Shown one piece after another: positions 4,034-55,100 of a stretch of 64,000 nucleotides of DNA. Every line of letters starts with the position of its first letter. The stretch's first letter is position 1. This stretch comes from a virus. Below the pieces are notes generated by a model. It was not told the DNA's origin and ran no database searches. It saw only the letters and a list, made by a program, of their open reading frames with translations. The translations under genes were made by a program, and so were the position numbers. The stretch lies in the IMG/VR virus record IMGVR_UViG_3300035684_000002, positions 1 to 64,000 of that record; one strand, written 5' to 3'.

Positions 4034-4450
4034 CGGAACCGGTAGCGCCTGGACGTGATACCGGGGCGCTACCGGTTGTTACCGCAGGTCAAGGCCCTGT
4101 TTCTGGCTCTTGACACGGGTGTTGATAACTAAAGTACGCACGTGCCTTGTTACCCAAGCGCTACCGGATGTTACCGCAGGTCAGAGGCCCTTTTCGAGGC
4201 TCCGGTAGCGCCCGGTAGCGCCGGTAACAAGATCAAGTAACGTGATCTTGTTACCGTCCGGCGTGTCGCTCGGCGTGTCGCGCTACCGGTGATCTTGAAA
4301 GCGCTACCGAAATCGCGTTTCCGCAGGTCAGACCCCTGATACCAAAATGATCTTTAGATGATCTTCACAAGATCATCGGTAGCGGTCGGTATCACGTCGA
4401 TATCAGGCTCTGACCTGGGCGGTAGCGGTTGGTAGCGCCCCGGTATCACG
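4030..4450. repeat. iteron field, candidate replication origin
   Basis: About 10 copies of GGTAGCGC/GCGCTACC in both orientations. 3x CGGTATCACG, 3x GTTNCCGCAGGTCA, 6x TGATCTT/AAGATCA. Perfect 13 bp inverted repeat at 4223-4255. Locally AT-richer, and directly downstream of the primase-helicase gene. Confidence 0.6.
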
Positions 4451-6707: not shown

Positions 6708-7176
6708 TCGGGCTCGATGTCACAGAGGGTCACCCCCCGGAGGGGAGGGGGGTGGGCACCCATCGTGACTTTGGGTAACCCCATAGACCCCCGCCCCTAC
6801 CCCCCCCACGGTCTGTACGGGTCTGGGGCGGCCCTCTGACCTGCGGAAACGTGCCCGGTCCGGGCCCCGCTGAGTGCCTCGCCCGCGCGCCGGGCGCGGC
6901 GCGGCGTGATCAAGCCCCTGACCTGCGGAAACGTACCCGCCCCGGGCCCCCAGGGCCGGTCACTCCCGGTGACCCTCTCGCGATCACGATCATGGTCGGA
7001 GGCCGGCGGCGGGGTCTCGCTGTAGAGCGAGCCCCCAGCGGTCACCGATCGTGACCCCGGCCCCGATCACACTCCGTGACGCCCGCCCGGGCGCCCGGCC
7101 CGCGACCACGCTCCGCTACCAGTGGGGGCTCGCTCTACTCCGACCACCCAGCCACCCCACCGGAGGGACCACCACC
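6708..7176. other. long noncoding region upstream of the late operon (candidate cos/packaging or late-promoter region)
   Basis: No credible ORF. 2x CTGACCTGCGGAAACGTNCCCG (6836-6858 and 6918-6940). 15 bp inverted repeat 7022-7036 / 7124-7138. Several GATCGTGAC-like repeats. Confidence 0.4.
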
Positions 7177-38331: not shown

Positions 38332-40017
38332 TCAGACCTGGCCGGCGGAGAAGTCGCGCAGCAGGGTCGGCACCGCGCCGTCGAAGCCGGACACGTCGAG
38401 CTGGCCGGGGTCGTCGGGGTCGGCGATGCTGAACCGGGTCGGGGTCAGCGCGACGACCGCGAGCCGGGCCGCCGGGTTGATCTCGCGCCGGTACCGGGCG
38501 AGCGCCTGGTGCGGGTGCACCCCGCCGGCCCAGGTCTCGTTGTCGGTGTAGATCACGAACGTGTCGAACACCTTGCCCTTGACGGTGGCCCACGTCATCG
38601 GCAGCGCGCAGTCGGTGCCGCCGAAGGGCAGCCCGGAGATCGCGGCCACGTTGTCGTCGAGCCGGCGGCGGGGCGACAGGTCGAGCGGGGTCAGCGTCGC
38701 CTCGCCGAAGACGCGCGCCGCCCGGCTGCTGCCGGAGGTGAACCCGACGACCTCGCACCCGGGCTCCGTCGCCATCGTCACCAGCGCCATGGCGGCACTG
38801 GCCTCGCGGCACGACAGCAGGGTGCCACCGGCCGGGCTGCCCATCGAGCCGGACACGTCGAGCGCCAGCAGCGTGCGCTTGCCGGCCGGCTCGACCGTCT
38901 CGAACGCGGCGTAGAACCCGGCATCGAGCGCGTCGACCAGCTCGCGCTTCGGCTGCCAGGTCGACGACCCGGCGAGGCTGTGCCCGCTGGCGTAGGTGCG
39001 CTGGGCGAGCAGCAGGGCGACGGGGTGGATGCGCCCGCGCCGCAGCTGCTCGCGGTCGGTCAGCCGGCGGATCACCGTCGCCAGCACCTCGCGGTCGTCG
39101 AGCACGCCGACCCGGGTCAGGCGGGGCAGCTGGCGCAGCAGCGCGCCGATCGGCATCCCGTTGTCGATCATCGCGCGCCAGACCTGGGCGTGACCCAGCG
39201 CGGCGTCGGGCAGCGCCTCCCACGGCAGCCGGAAGTTCTGCACCAGTCCGGCCCAGCCGGGTCCGGCGGTGGCGGGGCTGCGGTCGTGGTCGATCGCCTG
39301 GGCGGCGAGGTGCCCGCGGATCACAGCCGGCAGTGCGTCGGACTGGTCGAGCCCCAGGTGGCCGGTCGCCCAGGCGAGCGCGGCGCGGCGCGCGGCGTCG
39401 TCGTCGGTGGCGGTGCCGACCTTCGGGTGCGCGAGGCGCAGCAGGTCGCGGTGCGACCAGCCCTCGCGCTGGCGGTACTTCACCAGCTGGTACGCCAGCG
39501 AGTCGGCGTCGAAGTTGTCGGCGGCGTACCAGGCGGCGATCGCCCGGCGCAGCCCGCGGCCCCACCCGCGGAACTGCTCGACGTAGCCGGCGAAGGTGAA
39601 CAGGGTCGAGCCGGTGCGGCAGACCTGCGGCACCGCGGTGAGCGCCGCCGACCGGGCGGCGTCGTCGCCCAGCCCGGCCACCGCCGCCAGCGCGAAGATG
39701 GCGGGCTGCTGGCGGAGCGCGCGCCCGGCGAGGCTGACGGCCACGACCTGCTCGACCAGCCAGCTGCCGCGCTCGCGGGCGGCGGTCAGGATGACGTCGG
39801 CGTTGTCCTTCGTGGTCTCGCGCTCGCCGACGTAGAACGTGCCACCGGCCGTGCCCAGGGTGAGGAACCGGTGCACGCGGGTATCGGCGCTGACGTCGAA
39901 GACGAAGCCCCCCGCGCTGTTGCGCACCTGGCGCGGGTCGGCCGGCTGGCTCTGCGGGGTGGCGCGGGTGTTGATCGTCGCGAGCGGGTCGCTGGTGCGG
40001 GTCGAGCTGCGGGCCAC
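38332..40017 (-). CDS. rsr: Ro60 orthologue Rsr (TROVE domain + vWA/MIDAS)
   Basis: Track ORF 561 aa. QVRNSAGGFVFDV...RFLTLGTAGGTFYVGE matches the conserved Ro N-terminus. C-terminal LLALDVSGSMGS MIDAS motif. Y-RNA-like genes lie directly upstream. Confidence 0.9.
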   Translation of the reverse strand: MARSSTRTSDPLATINTRATPQSQPADPRQVRNSAGGFVFDVSADTRVHRFLTLGTAGGTFYVGERETTKDNADVILTAARERGSWLVEQVVAVSLAGRALRQQPAIFALAAVAGLGDDAARSAALTAVPQVCRTGSTLFTFAGYVEQFRGWGRGLRRAIAAWYAADNFDADSLAYQLVKYRQREGWSHRDLLRLAHPKVGTATDDDAARRAALAWATGHLGLDQSDALPAVIRGHLAAQAIDHDRSPATAGPGWAGLVQNFRLPWEALPDAALGHAQVWRAMIDNGMPIGALLRQLPRLTRVGVLDDREVLATVIRRLTDREQLRRGRIHPVALLLAQRTYASGHSLAGSSTWQPKRELVDALDAGFYAAFETVEPAGKRTLLALDVSGSMGSPAGGTLLSCREASAAMALVTMATEPGCEVVGFTSGSSRAARVFGEATLTPLDLSPRRRLDDNVAAISGLPFGGTDCALPMTWATVKGKVFDTFVIYTDNETWAGGVHPHQALARYRREINPAARLAVVALTPTRFSIADPDDPGQLDVSGFDGAVPTLLRDFSAGQV

Positions 40018-40101
40018 GGTGGGCCACCTTCCTGTCGGGGTGTGAGGTTTCCGTTCGAGCTACTTCGTCGGGTGGTGGTGCAGACAGCAAAACAGGCCGG
40101 G

Positions 40102-40438: not shown

Positions 40439-40567
40439 GCACGGGCGTGTTAGTGGTACCGGTAAAGGTGCTCTGCCAACTGAGCTACGTCGCCCGAAGA
40501 CGACGGCGGGATTCGAACCCGCGGCCACCCCGTTATCAGCGGATAACCGATCCCGTCCGGCCCGTGC
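40439..40567 (-). ncRNA. yrlA: YrlA-type Y RNA (module 1) with complete circularly permuted tRNA-like domain
   Basis: Closing stem GCACGGGC/GCCCGTGC. GGGCCGGACGGGATCGGTTATC. T-arm GCGGG-TTCGAAT-CCCGC. Acceptor CGTCGTC-TTCG-GGCGACG. TA + D-arm GCTC-AGTTGGCA-GAGC. The 5-prime end coincides with the predicted +1. Confidence 0.75.
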
Positions 40568-40615
40568 GTCAGCGACTGTAGTGCACTACAGCCGGGCACG
40601 CAACATAGGGGTTAG
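40568..40615 (-). promoter_or_regulatory. promoter of the Y RNA-rsr operon, with a distinct palindromic operator (cassette C)
   Basis: -35 TTGCGT (40598-603), 17 nt spacer, -10 TACAGT (40575-80). The spacer holds the perfect 16 bp palindrome CTGTAGTGCACTACAG (40576-91). Upstream site CTAACCCCTATGTTGCG. Confidence 0.6.
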
Positions 40616-44252: not shown

Positions 44253-44546
44253 TTACCGGCGCCGGGCGGGCCCGGCCTTGCTGCGCGGGATCACCGGCAC
44301 GTCGACGCCCTCGCGCCGCAGCACCATGGTGATGCGGCGCCCCACCGCGACCTCCGTCATGCCGGTGATCGCGGCGAGCTGGGCGCGCGTCAGCTTCCCG
44401 CCGTTGTGCACGTCGTGACGGCGCAGCAGCTGGTCACGCGCGGACAGCGCGTCGGTGTGCTCGTTCCATGTCTCGACGACCCGGCCCTGAGCGGCGCGGA
44501 TCGCCTGTTCGGTACCCGCGTCGATCGCGGTCTGGTTGTCGGTCAT
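44253..44546 (-). CDS. HTH DNA-binding protein (leaderless)
   Basis: Track ORF 97 aa. LTRAQLAAITGMTEVAVGRRI HTH. The ATG sits at the predicted +1 of cassette D. Confidence 0.6.
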   Translation of the reverse strand: MTDNQTAIDAGTEQAIRAAQGRVVETWNEHTDALSARDQLLRRHDVHNGGKLTRAQLAAITGMTEVAVGRRITMVLRREGVDVPVIPRSKAGPARRR

Positions 44547-48232: not shown

Positions 48233-48424
48233 TCAGCTCGCGGTGCGCGAGCAGGTCAGCAGCTGGCCGGTCGCGGCGTAGTGCGCGCGTGCGCGCAGCT
48301 CGCGGGCGGCAGCCCGGTGGACGGCGGCGCGGGAGAAGATCGCCCGGCGCTTGCCGGGGTGGCACTCCGTCAGCAGCTCGCGCTCGATCTCGATCGCCGC
48401 TGCGGTGTGCTGCTCCGCGTCCAT
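48233..48424 (-). CDS. small hypothetical protein
   Basis: Track ORF 63 aa. Driven by cassette E. Confidence 0.5.
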   Translation of the reverse strand: MDAEQHTAAAIEIERELLTECHPGKRRAIFSRAAVHRAAARELRARAHYAATGQLLTCSRTAS

Positions 48425-48507
48425 CGTGGTCCCCTTCCCCGCCCGGTCCGTCCGGGCATGGCACTACCTTAACACCCCCGTCAGAGGTGGCGCAACAGGG
48501 GGGTTAG
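48425..48507 (-). promoter_or_regulatory. promoter/operator/leader cassette E
   Basis: -35 TTGCGC (48490-95), -10 TAAGGT (48466-71), +1 at 48459. Operator CTGACGGGGGTGTTAAG. Leader identical to cassette H. Confidence 0.6.
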
Positions 48508-49673: not shown

Positions 49674-49879
49674 CGGTTCACCAGCGCGGGGGTCTCGACG
49701 GCGCGGCGGGCGCGGCGGGCGGCGGCGGCGTCGCGGGCCACCCGGGCGGAGTGCGCCAGCAGCAGGGCGACGCGGGGGTCGACACCGCGGTGGCCGTCGG
49801 GGGCGGAGTGCCGGCCGCCGGTGAGCCGGGCGGCGACGCGCTCCGGGCGGTGCTGGCCGGCGGTCCTGGGGGTGATCAT
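49670..49879 (-). CDS. small basic protein
   Basis: Track ORF 69 aa. Preceded by GAACGGAACGGAGACCACCCGAC. Confidence 0.45.
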   Translation of the reverse strand: MITPRTAGQHRPERVAARLTGGRHSAPDGHRGVDPRVALLLAHSARVARDAAAARRARRAVETPALVNR

Positions 49880-49955
49880 GTCGGGTGGTCTCCGTTCCGT
49901 TCGGTGTGGTCGTAGCCTAACACCCAGGTTAGGCGAGGTGCAACAGGGGGGTTAG
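49880..49955 (-). promoter_or_regulatory. promoter/operator cassette F (short leader, no hairpin)
   Basis: -35 TTGCAC (49938-43), -10 TAGGCT (49914-19). Operator CTAACCTGGGTGTTAG. Confidence 0.55.
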
Positions 49956-49990
49956 CAGCTGGGGCCCGGGTCCGGTCCGGGCCCCAGCTG
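49956..49990 (-). terminator. stem-loop terminator
   Basis: 14 bp stem CAGCTGGGGCCCGG/CCGGGCCCCAGCTG. Confidence 0.55.
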
Positions 49991-49995
49991 GGCGA

Positions 49996-50268
49996 TCAGG
50001 CGCGGGGCGCCATCCGCGAGGTCGGCACGAACAGCGCCACGAACCCGTCGTAGCTGCGGTCAGCCGCGGGGCCCCACTCCAGGGCGTCGAGCACGTCGGC
50101 GATCAGCTCGCGGTCGTCGGCGGAGTCGGCGAAGACGGTGTGCAGCTGGCCGCCCAGAACCCGAAGCGAGACGATCCGGGGGTCGAGGTCGAGCTGGGCC
50201 AGCTGCGACTTGATCACGCGGGTGCGGGCGGCGGCGGAGCGGGGGGCGGCGGTTCCGGTGTTCGTCAT
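49996..50268 (-). CDS. hypothetical protein (leaderless)
   Basis: Track ORF 90 aa. The ATG sits at the predicted +1 of cassette G. Confidence 0.6.
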   Translation of the reverse strand: MTNTGTAAPRSAAARTRVIKSQLAQLDLDPRIVSLRVLGGQLHTVFADSADDRELIADVLDALEWGPAADRSYDGFVALFVPTSRMAPRA

Positions 50269-50501: not shown

Positions 50502-50810
50502 TCACGCCAGCGCCACGCCGCGCTCGCGGGCCAGCCCGCGCAGGGCGGCCCGGCGCTGCAACGCGCTGTGGTGGCGGTCGAGCACGCGCACCAGGTACGC
50601 CTCGACCAGCTCCGCCGGGATGGCGACGGCGTCGCGGGTGAGGTCGGTCAGCACCGCGCCATCGCGGGTAATCACCGCCTTGACGTCGCCCAGCCGGCCC
50701 GGCGTGTGCACGATCCGGGTCCCGGCCGGAGCGACGACCCGGCGGCCGGCGGTCCAGACGCCCAGGCCCAGCTCGCGGGCGGTGCTGGTGGTCTCGGTCG
50801 CGGTGTCCAT
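50502..50810 (-). CDS. hypothetical protein
   Basis: Track ORF 102 aa. Driven by cassette H. Confidence 0.6.
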   Translation of the reverse strand: MDTATETTSTARELGLGVWTAGRRVVAPAGTRIVHTPGRLGDVKAVITRDGAVLTDLTRDAVAIPAELVEAYLVRVLDRHHSALQRRAALRGLARERGVALA

Positions 50811-50890
50811 CGTGGTCCCCTTCCCCGCCCGGTCCGTCCGGGCATGGCACTACTCTAACACCCCTGTTAGCGAGGCGCAACCCCCGGGGT
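50811..50890 (-). promoter_or_regulatory. promoter/operator/leader cassette H
   Basis: -35 TTGCGC (50875-80), -10 TAGAGT (50852-57), +1 at 50845. Operator CTAACAGGGGTGTTAG. Leader hairpin present. Confidence 0.6.
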
Positions 50891-50913
50891 CGGAACTGGT
50901 CCCGACCCCGGGG
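50882..50913 (-). terminator. stem-loop terminator
   Basis: 12 bp stem CCCCGGGGTCGG/CCGACCCCGGGG. Confidence 0.5.
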
Positions 50914-50923
50914 TCGTCGCAGG

Positions 50924-52465
50924 TCAGCCCCGGCGCGGGACGCCCGCGCGCTGCTGGCGCCGGGCGCGCTCGACCTTGCCGACGACCTCGCGCGCCACCG
51001 CCGCGCGGCGGATCGTGCCGGGCGCGTGCGGGTAGCGGGCCAGCTGGGCGAGGTAGGGGGCGACCCCGGCAGGGTGCACGACCTCGCCCCCGTGCAGCGC
51101 GGTGACCAGCTGGTCACCGACCAGGTAGCCGACCAGCCGGCGGTCGCCGGCGCGGCCCAGGCGCACGACCTGGTCGCCGAACTCGCCGTGGTCGGCGGGG
51201 GCGAGGTCAACCGGGGCGTCGTCGACCGCCATCGCCTCGACCAGCTGGCGGGCGCTGACGTCGCCGGAGAGCAGCGCCGGGTCGACCAGTGGCGGCCGGG
51301 CCAGGCTGACCCCGCGCGTCCCGGCAGCGCCGTCCTGGGGGCGCACCTGGCCGGCCAGGTCGCGCACCTTGCCGGCCAGCTGGGCGACCTGGTGCCCAGC
51401 CCGCTGGCCGCGCTCGATGGCGCGGTCGTGCTCGCCGGTGACCTCGCGCAGCTGGCCGCGGTAGCTCGCGGCCCGGGCCTGGTGGGCGTCGGCCAGCGAG
51501 CGGAGCTGGCGCACCGCGCGGGTCACGATGGCGCCCTGCTCGCGCGCCTCGCCCGCGAAGTCCGGGCGGGCGATCCCGACCAGCGTGGCGATCGCCCCGG
51601 CCAGTTCGTCGAGGTCGACCCCGTCGGGGTCGGGCGTGCCGGCGGCGACGTCGAGCACCAGCGTGTCGTCGGCGGGCGGGTCGGTGCGCAGCTCGCGCCC
51701 GGCCAGCTGCGCCGACCAGGTGGCCGCCGCCGCGTTCCGGGCGGCGACCTGCGCCGCCCGGTCGAGCAGCGCCGCGCTGGCCGGCGGCATGACCGGCTCG
51801 ACGACCGGCGCCGACGGGGCGACCAGCTGGCCGGCCTCGACGGCGGCGCGGATGTCGGCGGCCGGCTGCGGCAGCCGGTAGTCGGGCCCGGTCAGCTCGA
51901 AGGTGTGCGAGCTGCTGGCCAGGTGGTGGCGGTGCTCCGGTCGGCCGCAGCGGGCGCACCGCTCCGCGGGCGGGAACCAGACCAGCCGGTTGAGCACGAC
52001 GGCGAGCACGTCGTTGCGGGGGCGAGTCTCCCAGCCGGTGGCGGCGGCGGTCTCGACCTGGCCGTCGGGGGCGAGCCAGACGGTGACCGCTTCGTAGCCG
52101 TCCTGCTCGCTGGCCGGGCGGTCGGCGGTGGCGGCCAGCTGGCCACGCTCGAAGGCGAGGTTGGCGCCGGTGCCCAGGGTCGGCAGCTCGCGCCAGCCGT
52201 TGCGCTCCGCCGCCTCGACCAGCAGCCGGCGGGGGGCGTCATCGTGGCGCAGCCAGGCCAGCACCACCTCGCGCTTGCCCTGGCGCGGCTGGTCGCGGAG
52301 CTGGCCGGCTCGCCGGACGGCGGCGGTCACCGCGCCGGCCCGGTTGAACCAGACGGCCAGGTGCACGTCCCCGCGGGTGATCTCGACGTAGGCGTTGCCG
52401 TCGGTGGCGGCCCAGCCCTGCTCGGCGGCGTCGGCCAGGATCTGCTCGCGGGCGGTGATGCTCAT
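50924..52465 (-). CDS. hypothetical protein (513 aa)
   Basis: Track ORF. Balanced composition. CARCGRPEHRHH motif. Driven by cassette I. Confidence 0.7.
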   Translation of the reverse strand: MSITAREQILADAAEQGWAATDGNAYVEITRGDVHLAVWFNRAGAVTAAVRRAGQLRDQPRQGKREVVLAWLRHDDAPRRLLVEAAERNGWRELPTLGTGANLAFERGQLAATADRPASEQDGYEAVTVWLAPDGQVETAAATGWETRPRNDVLAVVLNRLVWFPPAERCARCGRPEHRHHLASSSHTFELTGPDYRLPQPAADIRAAVEAGQLVAPSAPVVEPVMPPASAALLDRAAQVAARNAAAATWSAQLAGRELRTDPPADDTLVLDVAAGTPDPDGVDLDELAGAIATLVGIARPDFAGEAREQGAIVTRAVRQLRSLADAHQARAASYRGQLREVTGEHDRAIERGQRAGHQVAQLAGKVRDLAGQVRPQDGAAGTRGVSLARPPLVDPALLSGDVSARQLVEAMAVDDAPVDLAPADHGEFGDQVVRLGRAGDRRLVGYLVGDQLVTALHGGEVVHPAGVAPYLAQLARYPHAPGTIRRAAVAREVVGKVERARRQQRAGVPRRG

Positions 52466-52550
52466 CGTCGGGGGCTCCGTTCCGCCCGGTCCGTCCGGGC
52501 ATGGCAGAACAGTAACACCCCTGTCAGAGCGAGCGCAACCCCCCTGTTAG
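52466..52550 (-). promoter_or_regulatory. promoter/operator/leader cassette I
   Basis: -35 TTGCGC (52533-38), -10 TACTGT (52509-14), +1 at 52502. Operator CTGACAGGGGTGTTAC. Upstream site CTAACAGGGGGGTTGCGC. Leader hairpin present. Confidence 0.6.
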
Positions 52551-52604
52551 AGATCGCCGCCGGCGAGGTGTTCCCGCAGGTCAACGGCGAGTTTCGCCCC
52601 GGTG

Positions 52605-52676
52605 TTGACGGGAGCTAACAGGGGTGTTAGTGTTCTCCCATGCCCGGACGGACCGGGCGGGACGGAGACCAGGACG
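52605..52676 (+). promoter_or_regulatory. promoter/operator/leader cassette J
   Basis: -35 TTGACG (52605-10), 17 nt spacer, -10 TAGTGT (52628-33), +1 at 52640. Operator CTAACAGGGGTGTTAG. 37 nt leader with hairpin. Confidence 0.65.
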
Positions 52677-52919
52677 ATGGACGCGAACACCCCCTACAGC
52701 ACCGGCGAGGCCACCGACATGGCGGTCATGCTGCTGATGCGCAAGCTGCGCCGGGGGCTGTCCTTCGAGGTGGCGCTGGCCCAGCTGCCCGACGGGGCGC
52801 GCGAGGCGCTAGCCCACGCCGAGCAGTGCGGCGACGACGTGCGCTTCGCCGACCAGGCGGCCGGCATCGGCTTCGGCGACCGGCCCTGGCCGACCCGGTT
52901 CGCCGACCTCGACGACTGA
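52677..52919 (+). CDS. small hypothetical protein
   Basis: ATG 52677 follows GACGGAGACC and is in frame with track ORF 52602..52919. Confidence 0.6.
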   Translation: MDANTPYSTGEATDMAVMLLMRKLRRGLSFEVALAQLPDGAREALAHAEQCGDDVRFADQAAGIGFGDRPWPTRFADLDD

Positions 52920-52926
52920 CCCCCGC

Positions 52927-52952
52927 GGGGGCCCGGCTCCGGCCGGGCCCCC
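52927..52952 (+). terminator. stem-loop terminator
   Basis: 11 bp stem GGGGGCCCGGC/GCCGGGCCCCC with loop TCCG. Confidence 0.5.
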
Positions 52953-52962
52953 GACCTGGGCC

Positions 52963-53043
52963 CTGACCTGCGGGAACAGGTGCCAGGAAGATTTTCTAAC
53001 AGGGGGGTTGCGCACCTGCTAACAGGGGTGTTAGAGTACTCCC
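52963..53043 (+). promoter_or_regulatory. promoter/operator cassette K (leaderless type)
   Basis: CTGACCTGCGGGAAC..., upstream site CTAACAGGGGGGTTGCGC, -35 TTGCGC (53008-13), operator CTAACAGGGGTGTTAG, -10 TAGAGT (53032-37), 6 nt, then ATG 53044. Confidence 0.65.
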
Positions 53044-53391
53044 ATGACGAAGCGCACCGAGTACACCGCCACCGCCCCCAACGGCTCCGCCTACACCTTC
53101 ACCGCCAGCACGAAGCCGGCGGCGGTTCGGTTCCTCGACATCACCGGCACCCGGATGGACGATGGCCAGCCCAACGTCGGCGACCGGTCCTACATCATCA
53201 GCACCCACCGCAGCGTCAAGGCGGCCGGCACCAGCTTCCAGTCCCCGACCTGGCGCGAGCTGCTGGTGCCGGGCTCCGTGGTGACCGACATCCGCGAGGC
53301 TGGCGCCCCGACCGGCCCGGTCTGCACCAGCTGCTCGACCCCGCTGCCGGTGGAGGCGGCCGGCGGGGACGGGCGCTGCGGGCTCTGCTGA
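53044..53391 (+). CDS. hypothetical protein with C-terminal Zn-ribbon (leaderless)
   Basis: Track ORF 115 aa. CTSC...CGLC. Confidence 0.65.
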   Translation: MTKRTEYTATAPNGSAYTFTASTKPAAVRFLDITGTRMDDGQPNVGDRSYIISTHRSVKAAGTSFQSPTWRELLVPGSVVTDIREAGAPTGPVCTSCSTPLPVEAAGGDGRCGLC

Positions 53392-53398
53392 GCCCCCG

Positions 53399-53422
53399 GG
53401 GCCCGGCTCCGGCCGGGCCCCA
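53399..53422 (+). terminator. stem-loop terminator (near-copy of 52927-52952)
   Basis: GGGGCCCGGC-TCCG-GCCGGGCCCC. Confidence 0.5.
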
Positions 53423-53431
53423 GCTGGGCCC

Positions 53432-53512
53432 CTGACCTGCGGGAACAGGTGCCAGGAAGATTTTCTAACAGGGGGGTTGCGCACCCGCTAACACCCCTGT
53501 TATAGTTCTCCC
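53432..53512 (+). promoter_or_regulatory. promoter/operator cassette L (leaderless type, direct repeat of K)
   Basis: First 54 nt identical to K. Operator core flipped (CTAACACCCCTGTTAT). -10 TATAGT (53501-06), then ATG 53513. Confidence 0.65.
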
Positions 53513-53827
53513 ATGCAGCGCACCGGAACCCCCGCCCCCACCGCCCCCGCCGGCTTCACCGCCGACGACCTCTGCCCCACCTGCCACGGTGCCGGCCAGG
53601 TCGAGGACACCCTGTCGGTCATCGAGGACGAGACCCCCGACCAGGTCGAGTGCGACGACTGCGACGGCGTCGGCTGGTCCAAGCCGGCTCCGGTCACCGA
53701 GACCAATGCCCAGCTGGCGATCCGCCGGATGCGCGAGCACTTCGCGGAGGTGCACCCGGACGGGGACCTGACCCTGGGCCCGGGCTGCCGCTGGGCGACC
53801 TGCGCGGTGGTGCGGGCGGCCCGCTGA
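53513..53827 (+). CDS. small protein with DnaJ-type CxxCxGxG zinc finger (leaderless)
   Basis: Track ORF 104 aa. CPTCHGAGQVED...CDDCDGVG. Confidence 0.65.
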   Translation: MQRTGTPAPTAPAGFTADDLCPTCHGAGQVEDTLSVIEDETPDQVECDDCDGVGWSKPAPVTETNAQLAIRRMREHFAEVHPDGDLTLGPGCRWATCAVVRAAR

Positions 53828-53918
53828 CGGGCTGGCCGCCAGCCCCCGGCCCCTACCACCCCGCCGACCAGCTGCGCCCGGCACAGCGGCGCTCAGCGCC
53901 TCGCGCGAGGTCGGGCCG

Positions 53919-54023
53919 CTGACCTGCGGACATGCCGCGCTAACAGGGGGGTTGCGCTCCGCTGACAGGGGTGTTAGAGTAGTGCCATGCCCGGACGGAC
54001 CGGGCGGGACGGAGGAAGCCAGG
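53919..54023 (+). promoter_or_regulatory. promoter/operator/leader cassette M
   Basis: CTGACCTGCGGACA..., TAACAGGGGGGTTGCGC, -35 at 53952-57, operator CTGACAGGGGTGTTAG, -10 TAGAGT (53975-80), +1 at 53987. 37 nt leader with hairpin. Confidence 0.65.
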
Positions 54024-54203
54024 ATGGCGAGAGTCTGGGTCGGGACCGCACCGAAGCGGCGCAAGCCCTGCGACGGGCTGTGCGGCGGCCAGGGCGGCGA
54101 CGTCACGGTCGAGGTCTACAGCGTCTACGACCCCACGAAGCTGCTACGGGTGGAGACCAAGCCGTGCCCACGCTGCAACGGCAGCGGCGAGGTCGACGCC
54201 TGA
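54024..54203 (+). CDS. 59-aa zinc-finger protein
   Basis: ATG 54024 follows GACGGAGGAAGCC and is in frame with track ORF 53952..54203. CDGLCGGQGG...CPRCNGSG. Confidence 0.55.
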   Translation: MARVWVGTAPKRRKPCDGLCGGQGGDVTVEVYSVYDPTKLLRVETKPCPRCNGSGEVDA

Positions 54204-54209
54204 CCCACC

Positions 54210-54245
54210 GGCCCGGGGCCCAGCTCGCCAGCTGGGCCCCGGGCC
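54210..54245 (+). terminator. stem-loop terminator
   Basis: 16 bp stem GGCCCGGGGCCCAGCT/AGCTGGGCCCCGGGCC. Confidence 0.55.
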
Positions 54246-54268
54246 CCGACCCCGAAGGGGGGGGCGCG

Positions 54269-54508
54269 ATGCGCCCTGAGATCGACGACACGGGCCGCGA
54301 GGACCACGGCCGGGCCGCCACCTGGGCGCTGGTCTGCGCGCCCCTGGCCGCGCACCTGGGCGGCGACTCCGGCTCGCCCGCGGTCGGCGCGGTGCTGTGG
54401 CTGGGCGTGGCGTTCGCCGTGGCCCAGCTGCTGCTCGCGCGCCACCCGGTGCCGGCCTCGCCGCCGGACCCGCCGCACCCGTTCCGCCGGGCCGGCGACC
54501 CGGTCTGA
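54269..54508 (+). CDS. small membrane protein
   Basis: ATG 54269 is in frame with track ORF 53987..54508. Two hydrophobic segments. No cassette of its own. Confidence 0.45.
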   Translation: MRPEIDDTGREDHGRAATWALVCAPLAAHLGGDSGSPAVGAVLWLGVAFAVAQLLLARHPVPASPPDPPHPFRRAGDPV

Positions 54509-54520
54509 CCCAGCTCGACC

Positions 54521-54554
54521 ACCAGCCCCCCGGCCACCAGGCCGGGGGGCTGGT
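54521..54554 (+). terminator. stem-loop terminator
   Basis: 15 bp stem ACCAGCCCCCCGGCC/GGCCGGGGGGCTGGT with loop ACCA. Confidence 0.55.
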
Positions 54555-54661
54555 CCGCATCCGGGGAAACCCTGGTGCGCACCCCGGTGTCCGCGCGTGT
54601 CCGCGCCCCTGACCTGCTGTCCGCCGGTGTCCGCGGACGTCCGGCGGACACCGGGCAGCTC

Positions 54662-54749
54662 GCGCTAACAGGGGGGTTGCGCTCACCCTGACAGGGGTGT
54701 TAGTGTTCTCTCATGCCCGGACGGACCGGGCGGAGACGGAGACCAGGAC
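54662..54749 (+). promoter_or_regulatory. promoter/operator/leader cassette N
   Basis: CTAACAGGGGGGTTGCGC, -35 at 54677-82, operator CTGACAGGGGTGTTAG, -10 TAGTGT (54701-06), +1 at 54713. 37 nt leader with hairpin. Confidence 0.65.
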
Positions 54750-55100
54750 ATGACCGCCAGCCTCGCCACCACCGCCACCACCACCAGCGACGCGGGAGTC
54801 ACGATCGCCGCCGCCTTCGACCAGGTGGCCCAGCCCCTCGCCGACCTGGGCGACATCTTCGGCGAGCTGCTGGCCATGATCGGCGGCGAGCCGGTCGACC
54901 TGGCCACCGACGCGCACTTCGCCCAGCTGGTGGCCTACGACCAGGCGGTCGCCGCGGTGACCGCCGCGCGCATCGAGCTGGCGGCCACCGTGCGCCGGTG
55001 CGGCTACGGGCGCCGGGCCGCCGCCGCCGGCCACCAGCTGGCCGCCGCGCTCCGCCACCTCGACGCCACCCCGCACCCGGGCGCCCACCCCGCCGTCTGA
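54750..55100 (+). CDS. hypothetical Ala-rich protein
   Basis: Track ORF 116 aa. ATG follows GACGGAGACC. Confidence 0.55.
   Translation: MTASLATTATTTSDAGVTIAAAFDQVAQPLADLGDIFGELLAMIGGEPVDLATDAHFAQLVAYDQAVAAVTAARIELAATVRRCGYGRRAAAAGHQLAAALRHLDATPHPGAHPAV

Follow-up and report, generated by a model that had tools for sequence, protein, structure and literature searches.

The 64,000 nucleotides (nt) analysed here, positions 1 to 64,000 of the IMG/VR virus record IMGVR_UViG_3300035684_000002 (hereafter the window), carry a repeated early promoter that is directly followed in eight gene cassettes by a common leader of 35–37 nt. The leader consists of AUGCCCGGACGGACCGGGCGG, a Shine-Dalgarno (SD) sequence and the AUG start codon, and it folds into a hairpin at its 5′ end. 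The window forms a section of a metagenome contig of 73.8 kb (GCA_034691665.1, JAXMNJ010891271.1) with a GC content of 73%. The plus strand carries structural genes over roughly the first 32 kb, with non-structural genes beyond this point. The encoded proteins include DpdA, a Ro60/TROVE protein and a portal protein which is about 50% identical to that of the Cluster I mycobacteriophages. A comparison of the cassette region with 50,697 phage records (megablast, blastn) gave no DNA match. Because of the GC content, the similarity of the portal protein and the lack of a cultured DNA match, the window is assigned to a phage that has not been cultured and whose high-GC host is probably an actinobacterium.

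Leadered and leaderless genes behind one promoter

About 15 small early genes, the cassettes A–O, are served by one repeated promoter. Its consensus is TTGCGC-N17/18-TA(G/C)NGT with the extended −10 region TGnTA(G/C)NGT, which is followed by a further 6 nt. The spacer of 17–18 nt contains the palindrome CTAACAGGGGTGTTAG, and the −35 region is overlapped by TAAC(A/C)SSSSSS(G/T)GTT. Judged by this consensus, the promoter of cassette J extends from 52596 to 52639 on the plus strand and comprises the −35 region TTGACG, a 17-nt spacer with the palindrome, the extended −10 region TGnTAGTGT and the sequence TCTCCC.

Four of the cassettes contain genes that are predicted to lack a leader. These are D (44253–44546, minus strand, promoter TTGACC-N18-TAGGAT), G (49996–50268, minus strand), K (53044–53391, plus strand, −10 TAGAGT) and L (53513–53827, plus strand, −10 TATAGT). 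In each of them the ATG stands exactly 6 nt after the −10 region TANNNT, with no space for an SD sequence. The four open reading frames (ORFs) have a GC content at third codon positions (GC3) of 0.94–0.97, and their homologs begin at the same place. Because these four genes, whose start sites are predicted, begin at this position, we infer that transcription starts at the A located 6 nt after the −10 region. The existence of two mRNA types, eight leadered and four leaderless, within one promoter family had been proposed in an earlier reading of this DNA without database searches (the sequence-only reading) and is supported here.

The leader of cassette J together with its start codon spans 52640–52679 on the plus strand (predicted +1, A52640). 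It contains the hairpin UGCCCGG-ACGGA-CCGGGCG at 52641–52659, with the loop at 52648–52652 and a predicted free energy of about −12.6 kcal/mol. The hairpin is followed by the putative SD region GGACGGAG (52660–52667), which is located 9 nt ahead of the ATG at 52677–52679. The corresponding elements, each including the start codon, are found on the plus strand at 53987–54026 (M) and 54713–54752 (N). Those on the minus strand are located at 52463–52502 (I, gene 50924–52465), 50808–50845 (H, with the SD sequence GGGGAAGGGGA), 48422–48459 (E, same as H), 35188–35226 (B, with the GTG of dpdA) and 32869–32908 (A). The leader is 37 nt long in A, I, J, M and N, 36 nt in B and 35 nt in E and H, exactly as given in the sequence-only reading. 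Eight leaders starting at the same position with ACGGAG as the SD sequence had also been described there. The eight copies are present; however, the 5′ ATG of cassette A stands 5 nt after the −10 region, and the SD sequence of E and H is GGGGAAGGGGAC.

The repetition of the leader is far above chance. The 19-mer ATGCCCGGACGGACCGGGC occurs eight times with at most one mismatch, compared with 0.23 expected occurrences, and this count was reached in none of 100 shuffles. Its sites are 32908, 35226, 48459, 50845 and 52502 on the minus strand and 52640, 53987 and 54713 on the plus strand. A covariance model built from the leaders detects exactly nine copies in the window with scores of 40–56 bits (55.3 bits for J), and the next match scores 17 bits. 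All nine adjoin promoters, beginning 1–2 nt after the predicted +1, and none is found elsewhere in the window. The ninth copy, in cassette O (61052–61088, minus strand, 40.4 bits), is the variant CGGCGG-ACGGA-CCGCCG, which has no AUG at its 5′ end. As the sequence-only reading had pointed out, three base pairs are flipped in this copy and the pairing is kept. The promoter of cassette O (TTGCGG-N17-TAACCT) is shifted by 10 nt, and the hairpin is still located 1–2 nt from the predicted start. Cassette F has the same promoter and a short leader, ACACCGAACGGAACGGAG.., with a tandem ACGGA and a stem of 3 bp (49877–49907, minus strand), which is conserved in the related metagenome contig L131.

Covariation and distribution of the 5′-terminal hairpin

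A stem GCCCGG/CCGGGC enclosing the loop ACGGA had been noted in the sequence-only reading. The hairpin is real, and its stem comprises 7 bp starting at U2 (+2 to +20). The same seven pairs were obtained independently with RNAalifold, in whose alignment the outermost pair is U·G in 16 sequences, U-A in four, and C-G and G-C in one each. Among the 11 distinct sequences of the window family, 97.4% of the cells are paired and four of the seven pairs have changed on both sides. The covariation score is 0.452, compared with 0.124 in shuffles, none of which (0 of 500) reached it. Sliding the pairing partner by one column reduces the pairing to at most 53%. Compensatory or wobble changes, as expected for a structured cis-regulatory RNA, affect both sides of four to five pairs. 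The sequence-only reading had named related phages as the place to look for such covariation. G·U and U·G pairs are compatible with RNA but not with a DNA palindrome, and they argue for an RNA hairpin. In the predicted fold nucleotide 1 is free, nucleotide 3 is paired with a probability of about 1 and the SD sequence is half open. Counted from the start site that the −10 spacing and the leaderless genes predict, one or two nucleotides are unpaired at the 5′ end, and four in L133.

The exact leader is present in three metagenome contigs of the Joint Genome Institute (JGI), L126, L127 and L128. Three more contigs, L131, L132 and L133, were reached through protein homologs, which gives 28 hairpin leaders in total with the window. 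Five related contigs contribute further compensatory stems, namely UGGCCGG-AAGGA-CCGGCCA in L126_897 (5′ end AUG), GCGCCGG-AGAGG-CCGGCGC in L131_2588 (5′ end AGC) and GGGCGG-ACGGA-CCGCCC in L133_1737 (5′ end AUC). The leaders L132_50 and L131_6523 have C2-G20 in place of U2·G20 (5′ end ACG), L127_1612 combines the standard stem with the loop ACCGA (5′ end GUG), and cassette A of the window has a G·U pair at the stem base (GGGT; 5′ end AUG).

Searches of general collections returned little. Rfam gave no match at the gathering threshold in the 64 kb window and nothing relevant at E ≤ 10 in the region 52400–54800. The exact 21-mer of the leader had no match in 185,579 reference genomes or IMG/VR, and a 20-base promoter pattern had none in genome_contigs and viral_contigs. 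IMG/VR loci related through the helicase are only 27–35% identical and contain no cassettes. The 15-mer CCCGGACGGACCGGG gave mostly single chance matches in IMG/VR, which later served as a control set. DpdA homologs with at most 64% identity (L134–L138, L142) were set aside as lying outside the cassette family.

The AUG at the 5′ end is less constant than the hairpin. Leaders beginning with AUG or GUG make up 23 of the 28, while the other five (ACG twice, AGC, AUC and AAC) retain the hairpin and the SD sequence. In mycobacteria, leaderless initiation is supported only by A/GUG (Shell 2015, PMC4633059), and the statement of the sequence-only reading that a 5′-terminal AUG suffices for leaderless initiation in actinobacteria is correct. 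The ORFs opened by the +1 codon are 29–173 amino acids (aa) long with a GC3 of 0.51–0.82, compared with 0.93–0.99 for the genes, and have no conserved stop or length. The combination of a conserved AUG or GUG with a conserved or coding-like frame, which would mark a functional upstream ORF, is not seen. The predicted pairing probability is about 1 for G3 of the AUG, and a part of the ensemble also pairs U2. Furthermore, C(−1) A(+1) Y(+2) is a preferred start-site context, which alone yields many 5′ AUGs. Because of the five leaders without AUG or GUG, the position of G3 in the stem, the non-coding shadow frames and this start-site context, the +1 AUG looks incidental, a likely by-product of the promoter module (CCC-A-U) and of the first pair in the stem, and initiation at it is probably suppressed by the hairpin.

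As had been stated, cassette B is the only one in the window whose gene shares its frame with the +1 ATG. The dpdA leader has a length of 36 nt, and hence an in-frame +1 codon, in three phages. The gene caller of a public protein collection began dpdA (34396–35226, minus strand) at the +1 ATG of the leader, giving a protein of 276 aa, and the SD-led GTG at 35190 gives 264 aa. Those relatives in which the leader begins with ACG show that it is the shorter form which is conserved.

The leader type of a gene is not fixed. The leaderless gene K of the window has a 79% identical ortholog in L131 (blastp between cassette genes) which is hairpin-leadered. The same holds for the leaderless gene G and its ortholog L131_4188. 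Conversely, dpdA is hairpin-leadered in the window, L127 and L132 and leaderless, with a GTG start, in L133. Because of these three switches between orthologs, the leader appears to be a generic expression module, not a gene-specific regulator. As far as the sequences tell, the leaderless and the hairpin-leadered forms are interchangeable ways to express the same genes from the same promoter.

The hairpin is also found outside the window family. The covariance model matched further IMG/VR contigs (the L064, L101 group), in which a repeated promoter cTTGACAaG with the palindrome GAAGCTTC is present (L064, 10296–13914; L101, 9926–12600; L228, 9002–9760). These three contigs were scanned using only the promoter consensus cTTGACAaG..−10 as a start, and the loop was not used for selection. 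At ten of the 11 promoter sites, a hairpin with a stem of 5 bp or more and a loop of 5 nt follows 6–11 nt after the −10 region. Nine of these loops read ACGGA and one reads ACGGU, all ten stems are different, and AAGGAG and ATG follow in all ten; none has an AUG at the 5′ end. No protein is common to these three contigs and the window at E < 1e-5, and L064 and L101 gave no match against the 50,697 phage records (megablast, blastn). Two tandem hairpins are present in L016/L105, a hairpin after TATGTT or TAACGT in L019/L025, and a single one in L045. In a set of 24 distinct hairpins, the closing G-C pair and the loop nucleotides A1 and G4 are invariant (G9, A10, G13, C15) and five of the six pairs covary. 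As the sequences added to this set had been selected for being hairpins, the evidence from their pairing is in part circular; that from the promoter-first scan is not. Within the window, ACGGA is the loop of all eight standard copies and of O; the relatives also have AAGGA, and ACCGA and AGAGG occur as variants.

In a virome-wide comparison without a stem requirement, 10 of 122 occurrences of GACGGAC..AAGGAG..ATG had flanking stems of 5 bp or more; with the permuted loop AGCGA as control the figure was 4 of 120, a difference that is not significant (p = 0.17). The ACGGA-loop motif is claimed for a few lineages only and not as a general phage feature. A blastn search of known phages with a 43-nt query gave chance matches and one suggestive site, upstream of thyX (gene 6) of Streptomyces phage JustBecause (MH744418; L144, 3000–3042). 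This site reads CGCCCGG-ACAGAA-CCGGCG, followed by GGACGG..GGAGGAG..GTG. It resembles the hairpin-SD leader with a different loop and, being a single instance, could be due to chance.

Surroundings of the cassettes

Each cassette promoter contains two operator-like palindromes, for example at 52615–52630, 52996–53011 and 53019–53034. One of them, TAACAGGGGTGTTA, covers the spacer and the −10 region, and the second, TAAC(A/C)(G/C)6(G/T)GTT(G/A), overlaps the −35 region in either orientation. The presence of both in every promoter suggests that a single repressor or activator controls all 15 cassettes. The 11-mer CTGACCTGCGG occurs 19 times with at most one mismatch, compared with 3.5 expected occurrences (0 of 100 shuffles). 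Copies are found 25–45 nt upstream of the −35 region in several cassettes, in both orientations. The sites include 4082–4331, 6836–6928, 40625, 52963, 53432 and 53919 among others, with clusters at 4.1–4.3 kb and 6.8–6.9 kb, and a second regulator probably binds to this motif. An E. coli-type promoter and terminator scanner gave nothing useful on the 73% GC window.

All cassette genes, leaderless or leadered, have a strong GC hairpin of 10–16 bp without a U-tract directly after the stop codon (52920–52955, 53398–53422, 50860–50915, 49940–49990, 34330–34395 and others). The post-stop sequence GGGGCCCGGCTCCGGCCGGGCCCC is common to J, K and the related contigs L131 and L126. These hairpins are terminator-like elements which would render the cassettes monocistronic, and the transcripts would then be short and structured at both ends.

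The promoter of cassette C, the fifteenth (TTGCGT-N17-TACAGT, approximately 40575–40606), serves an RNA gene instead of a protein gene (40442–40606, minus strand). The RNA is YrlA-like (Rfam RF02553, 39.5 bits, E = 3.8e-7, under the gathering score) and has a tRNA-like T-arm, GGTTCGAATCC. It is followed by more TCGGTTAYC modules and by the gene encoding the Ro60/TROVE and vWA protein (38332–40059). This arrangement resembles a Ro60/Y-RNA module that is carried by the phage and controlled by the early promoter. Nine of ten cassette proteins have no match in PHROGs. The product of the leaderless gene L (104 aa) contains CxxC..CxxC zinc-finger motifs (DnaJ_CXXCXGXG, faint) and weakly matches the PHROG "antitermination protein Q-like" (E = 5e-5), the similarity being limited to the zinc-finger region; a homolog search with this protein returned only the query itself. 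In the structural part of the window, six tandem repeats of 63 nt (21 codons; 63–79% identity to the reference copy) lie within a tail- or fibre-like ORF at 29474–29851 on the plus strand, and a second pair of 63-nt repeats is located at 31569–31694.

Possible roles of the hairpin leader

We propose that the leader is a modular RNA element joined to a repeated, operator-controlled early promoter. As soon as they are transcribed, nucleotides +2 to +20 would fold into a GC hairpin of 7 bp with an ACGGA pentaloop, leaving one or two free nucleotides at the 5′ end, and the SD sequence and the true start codon would follow. Such a 5′-terminal stem-loop may shield the short mRNAs from 5′-end-dependent decay initiated by RNase E, RNase J or an RppH-type enzyme. 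In addition, the incidental +1 AUG would have its G, and in part its U, buried by the hairpin, so that translation starts at the SD-led codon. This reading is suggested above all because the hairpin tracks the predicted 5′ end despite the altered promoter geometry of cassette O and of the second phage group. Protection of an mRNA from RNase E by 5′-terminal base pairing is known from the work of Emory, Bouvet and Belasco (1992), as cited in PMC3997798, and in Mycobacterium smegmatis the structure of 5′ untranslated regions (UTRs) correlates with mRNA stability (PMC11532794). The protection of the 5′ end combined with the occlusion of the +1 AUG is, in our opinion, the best explanation of the leader, although we hold it tentatively. 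What the sequences show is the hairpin with its covariation, its position and the exchange of the two leader forms between orthologs; where transcription starts, the stabilisation of the mRNA and the masking of the AUG are inferred.

Several observations weigh against this explanation. A pure stabiliser needs no specific loop, and yet G-ACGGA-C hardly varies on at least 15 different stems from two or more unrelated phage groups. Cassette F retains ACGGA with almost no stem. The hairpin of L133 begins at +5, and its four unpaired nucleotides are the limit for 5′ protection. The copies within each genome are nearly identical, so part of the conservation may be due to concerted evolution. The fold of a single leader has a modest z-score of −2.1, so the case for the hairpin is made by the comparison between copies and not by the folding energy.

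The conserved loop is the starting point of the serious and main rival, which is possible although we consider it rather unlikely. Here the hairpin would be an operator for a trans-acting RNA-binding factor that reads ACGGA, such as a CsrA/Rsm-type dimer bridging to an A(N)GGA at the SD sequence. The factor may jointly control the translation or stability of the hairpin-leadered early genes, or the transcripts may act as a sponge for it. A protein-binding hairpin had been mentioned in the sequence-only reading, and the match of the near-invariant loop to A(N)GGA keeps this option alive. Across the 24 distinct hairpins with their many stems, conservation is highest in the loop and the G-C pair that closes it, ACGG(A/U) recurs in all ten promoter-proximal hairpins of the second group, and cassette F keeps the loop sequence in a weak stem. 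[quoted passage not shown] In six of the nine window copies, 15 nt separate the start of the loop (nucleotide 9) from that of the SD ACGGA(G) (nucleotide 24). Both csrA and fliW are present in some actinomycetes with 73% GC (PMC9019756), and CsrA is found in some that are motile. However, a phmmer search of the six-frame ORFs of the 73.8 kb contig gave no CsrA or lambda N homolog (E > 1). Most actinobacteria are not known to encode CsrA. Stems of 5–7 GC pairs are much more stable than those of typical CsrA sites, and the loop variants ACCGA and AGAGG do not match A(N)GGA. Cassettes E, H and O have GGGGA or ACGAGGGGA in place of ANGGA at the SD sequence, and the specificity of this match is low, since any SD sequence of a Gram-positive host contains GGA. 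The virome-wide loop test was not significant either. Factor binding and 5′-end protection are not mutually exclusive. A broader form of the idea, namely that 5′ hairpins with G-ACGGA-C are an undescribed cis-element widely shared by high-GC phages, with at least two unrelated lineages and ten or more different stems in one of them, and read by a common trans-acting factor (a CsrA/Rsm-like or another loop-specific RNA-binding protein, encoded by host or phage), strikes us as unlikely. If it were true, the factor would switch the set of early genes on or off after transcription or be titrated by the early transcripts, and the leaderless cassettes would escape it.

The remaining alternatives are less convincing. 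The hairpin could have little function of its own and be part of a recombination-homogenised promoter/terminator linker that serves as a crossover point for small early genes. The cassettes, composed of terminator hairpin, CTGACCTGCGG motif, promoter and leader, flank small ORFan genes; E and H are 94% identical across 66 nt including the first codons; and gene content and leader type vary between related phages at the cassette boundaries. Comparable elements, the promoter early stem-loops (PeSLs), have been described as points of gene exchange (PMC4122927). This explanation is improbable in view of the compensatory and wobble changes that maintain pairing in diverged copies, and hitch-hiking does not explain why loop and architecture recur with unrelated promoters and proteins. 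Competition between leaderless initiation at the +1 AUG and the SD-led start, either as regulation or for the production of MPGRTGR.. peptides, had been put forward in the sequence-only reading. The 23 leaders with AUG or GUG and the in-frame dpdA leader of three phages would fit, but competition as a selected function is not upheld. It appears quite improbable given the five leaders that keep hairpin and SD sequence without such a codon, the pairing of G3, the variable length and non-coding GC3 profile of the +1 ORFs, the start-site context that is preferred anyway and the second phage group, which has the hairpin motif without any AUG. An antitermination signal similar to lambda boxB, which would allow read-through of the post-gene terminators, would account for a pentaloop on a GC stem directly after early promoters, for the terminator-like hairpin after every cassette gene and for the weak "antitermination protein Q-like" match of gene L. 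No N-like protein was found on the contig (phmmer, a weak test) and no conserved boxA-like element stands beside the hairpin; the leaderless cassettes meet the same terminators without a hairpin; and the hairpin is located at the extreme 5′ end, fused to the SD sequence, and not in a separate nut region. We therefore regard this role as very improbable. Conserved inverted repeats are known near the phiC31 early promoters, and the inverted repeat at +2 to +20 could likewise be a double-stranded DNA operator for a repressor. It stands beside a regulated promoter, and compensatory changes also keep a DNA palindrome. Nevertheless, the U·G and G·U positions break DNA symmetry and keep RNA pairing, the centre is asymmetric and conserved, the arms of the second group differ wholly within one genome and no single DNA-binding protein could read them, and the cassettes already bear two obvious palindromic operators, all of which makes a DNA operator scarcely credible. 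Three further candidates were rejected. A loop pseudoknot with the downstream sequence would require UCCGU, which the leaders lack, the invariant C of ACGGA would mismatch the CCUCC of 16S rRNA in a simple anti-SD mimicry, and the stem is too short for an RNase III site.

Expression signals of actinobacterial phages are poorly understood. The contig represents a natural, internally controlled experiment, in which one promoter is joined either to start codons or to one fixed leader with hairpin and SD sequence. With sister-phage orthologs of differing type, the contributions of a 5′ hairpin and of the leaderless form to stability and translation are directly testable in a high-GC host. Because the same ACGGA pentaloop is met on varied stems and with a promoter family that is unrelated, the element looks like an RNA module that can be reused, and it could become a compact expression part for the engineering of Streptomyces or Mycobacterium. 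The recurring pentaloop may also point to a loop-binding factor.

Several known systems resemble the leader in part. Like the CsrA/RsmA-controlled leaders of glgC, hcnA and hag, it has A(N)GGA in a hairpin loop and, in six of the nine window copies, a second such site over the SD sequence within the bridging range of 10–63 nt. It differs from them by its much longer, GC-rich stems, by the absence of the second site in some copies and by the lack of a detectable CsrA on the contig. The boxB hairpins of lambda and P22 also combine a GC stem with a purine-rich pentaloop in transcripts from early promoters. Their loop consensus is different, and in the window no boxA and no N homolog were found and the hairpin is fused to the ribosome-binding site (RBS) at the very 5′ end. 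The sequence-only reading was not aware of a description of the competition or protein-binding hairpin that it proposed. Leaderless 5′ RUG short ORFs that precede leadered genes are well documented for mycobacteria (PMC4633059, PMC9094748), in transcripts which likewise begin with AUG and carry an SD-led gene downstream. Unlike in these, the AUG of the leaders is partly buried, is not conserved in the relatives and opens non-coding shadow frames of variable length.

Closer parallels are found among phage repeats and mRNA stabilisers. [quoted passage not shown] They likewise stand at small early genes of different families, with a SigA-like promoter containing an inverted repeat in ESAS and an RBS-containing sequence a few nucleotides before the start in SAS. 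No sequence similarity exists: the 13-nt SAS GGGATAGGAGCCC (located 3–9 nt ahead of the start codon and in some cases preceded by imperfect inverted repeats of 17 bp) is absent from the leader sequences, and the relation is one of analogy only. The inverted repeats of ESAS are located in the promoter and lack RNA covariation, whereas the hairpin described here lies in the transcript at +2 to +20, and a mixture with leaderless genes on one promoter is absent from the SAS/ESAS description. The PeSLs of T4-like phages (PMC4122927) are units of a terminator hairpin and an early promoter between small variable genes and act as gene-exchange points. Their stem-loop is the terminator of the upstream gene, whereas in the cassettes the promoter is followed by an additional 5′ leader hairpin, whose loop is conserved; the hosts are of different phyla as well. 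The 5′ stabilisers of ompA and papA in E. coli and aprE in B. subtilis and the STAB-SD (citations in PMC3997798) share with the leader, as it is predicted here, a stable hairpin with at most 2–4 free 5′ nucleotides before the SD sequence and a GGA-containing element near the 5′ end. They belong to single genes and their loops are not conserved, while here one module with a near-invariant loop is used for 8–9 genes per genome. We class the leader as a variant of these known kinds of elements, SAS/ESAS, PeSLs and 5′ stabilisers, which stands outside any Rfam family.

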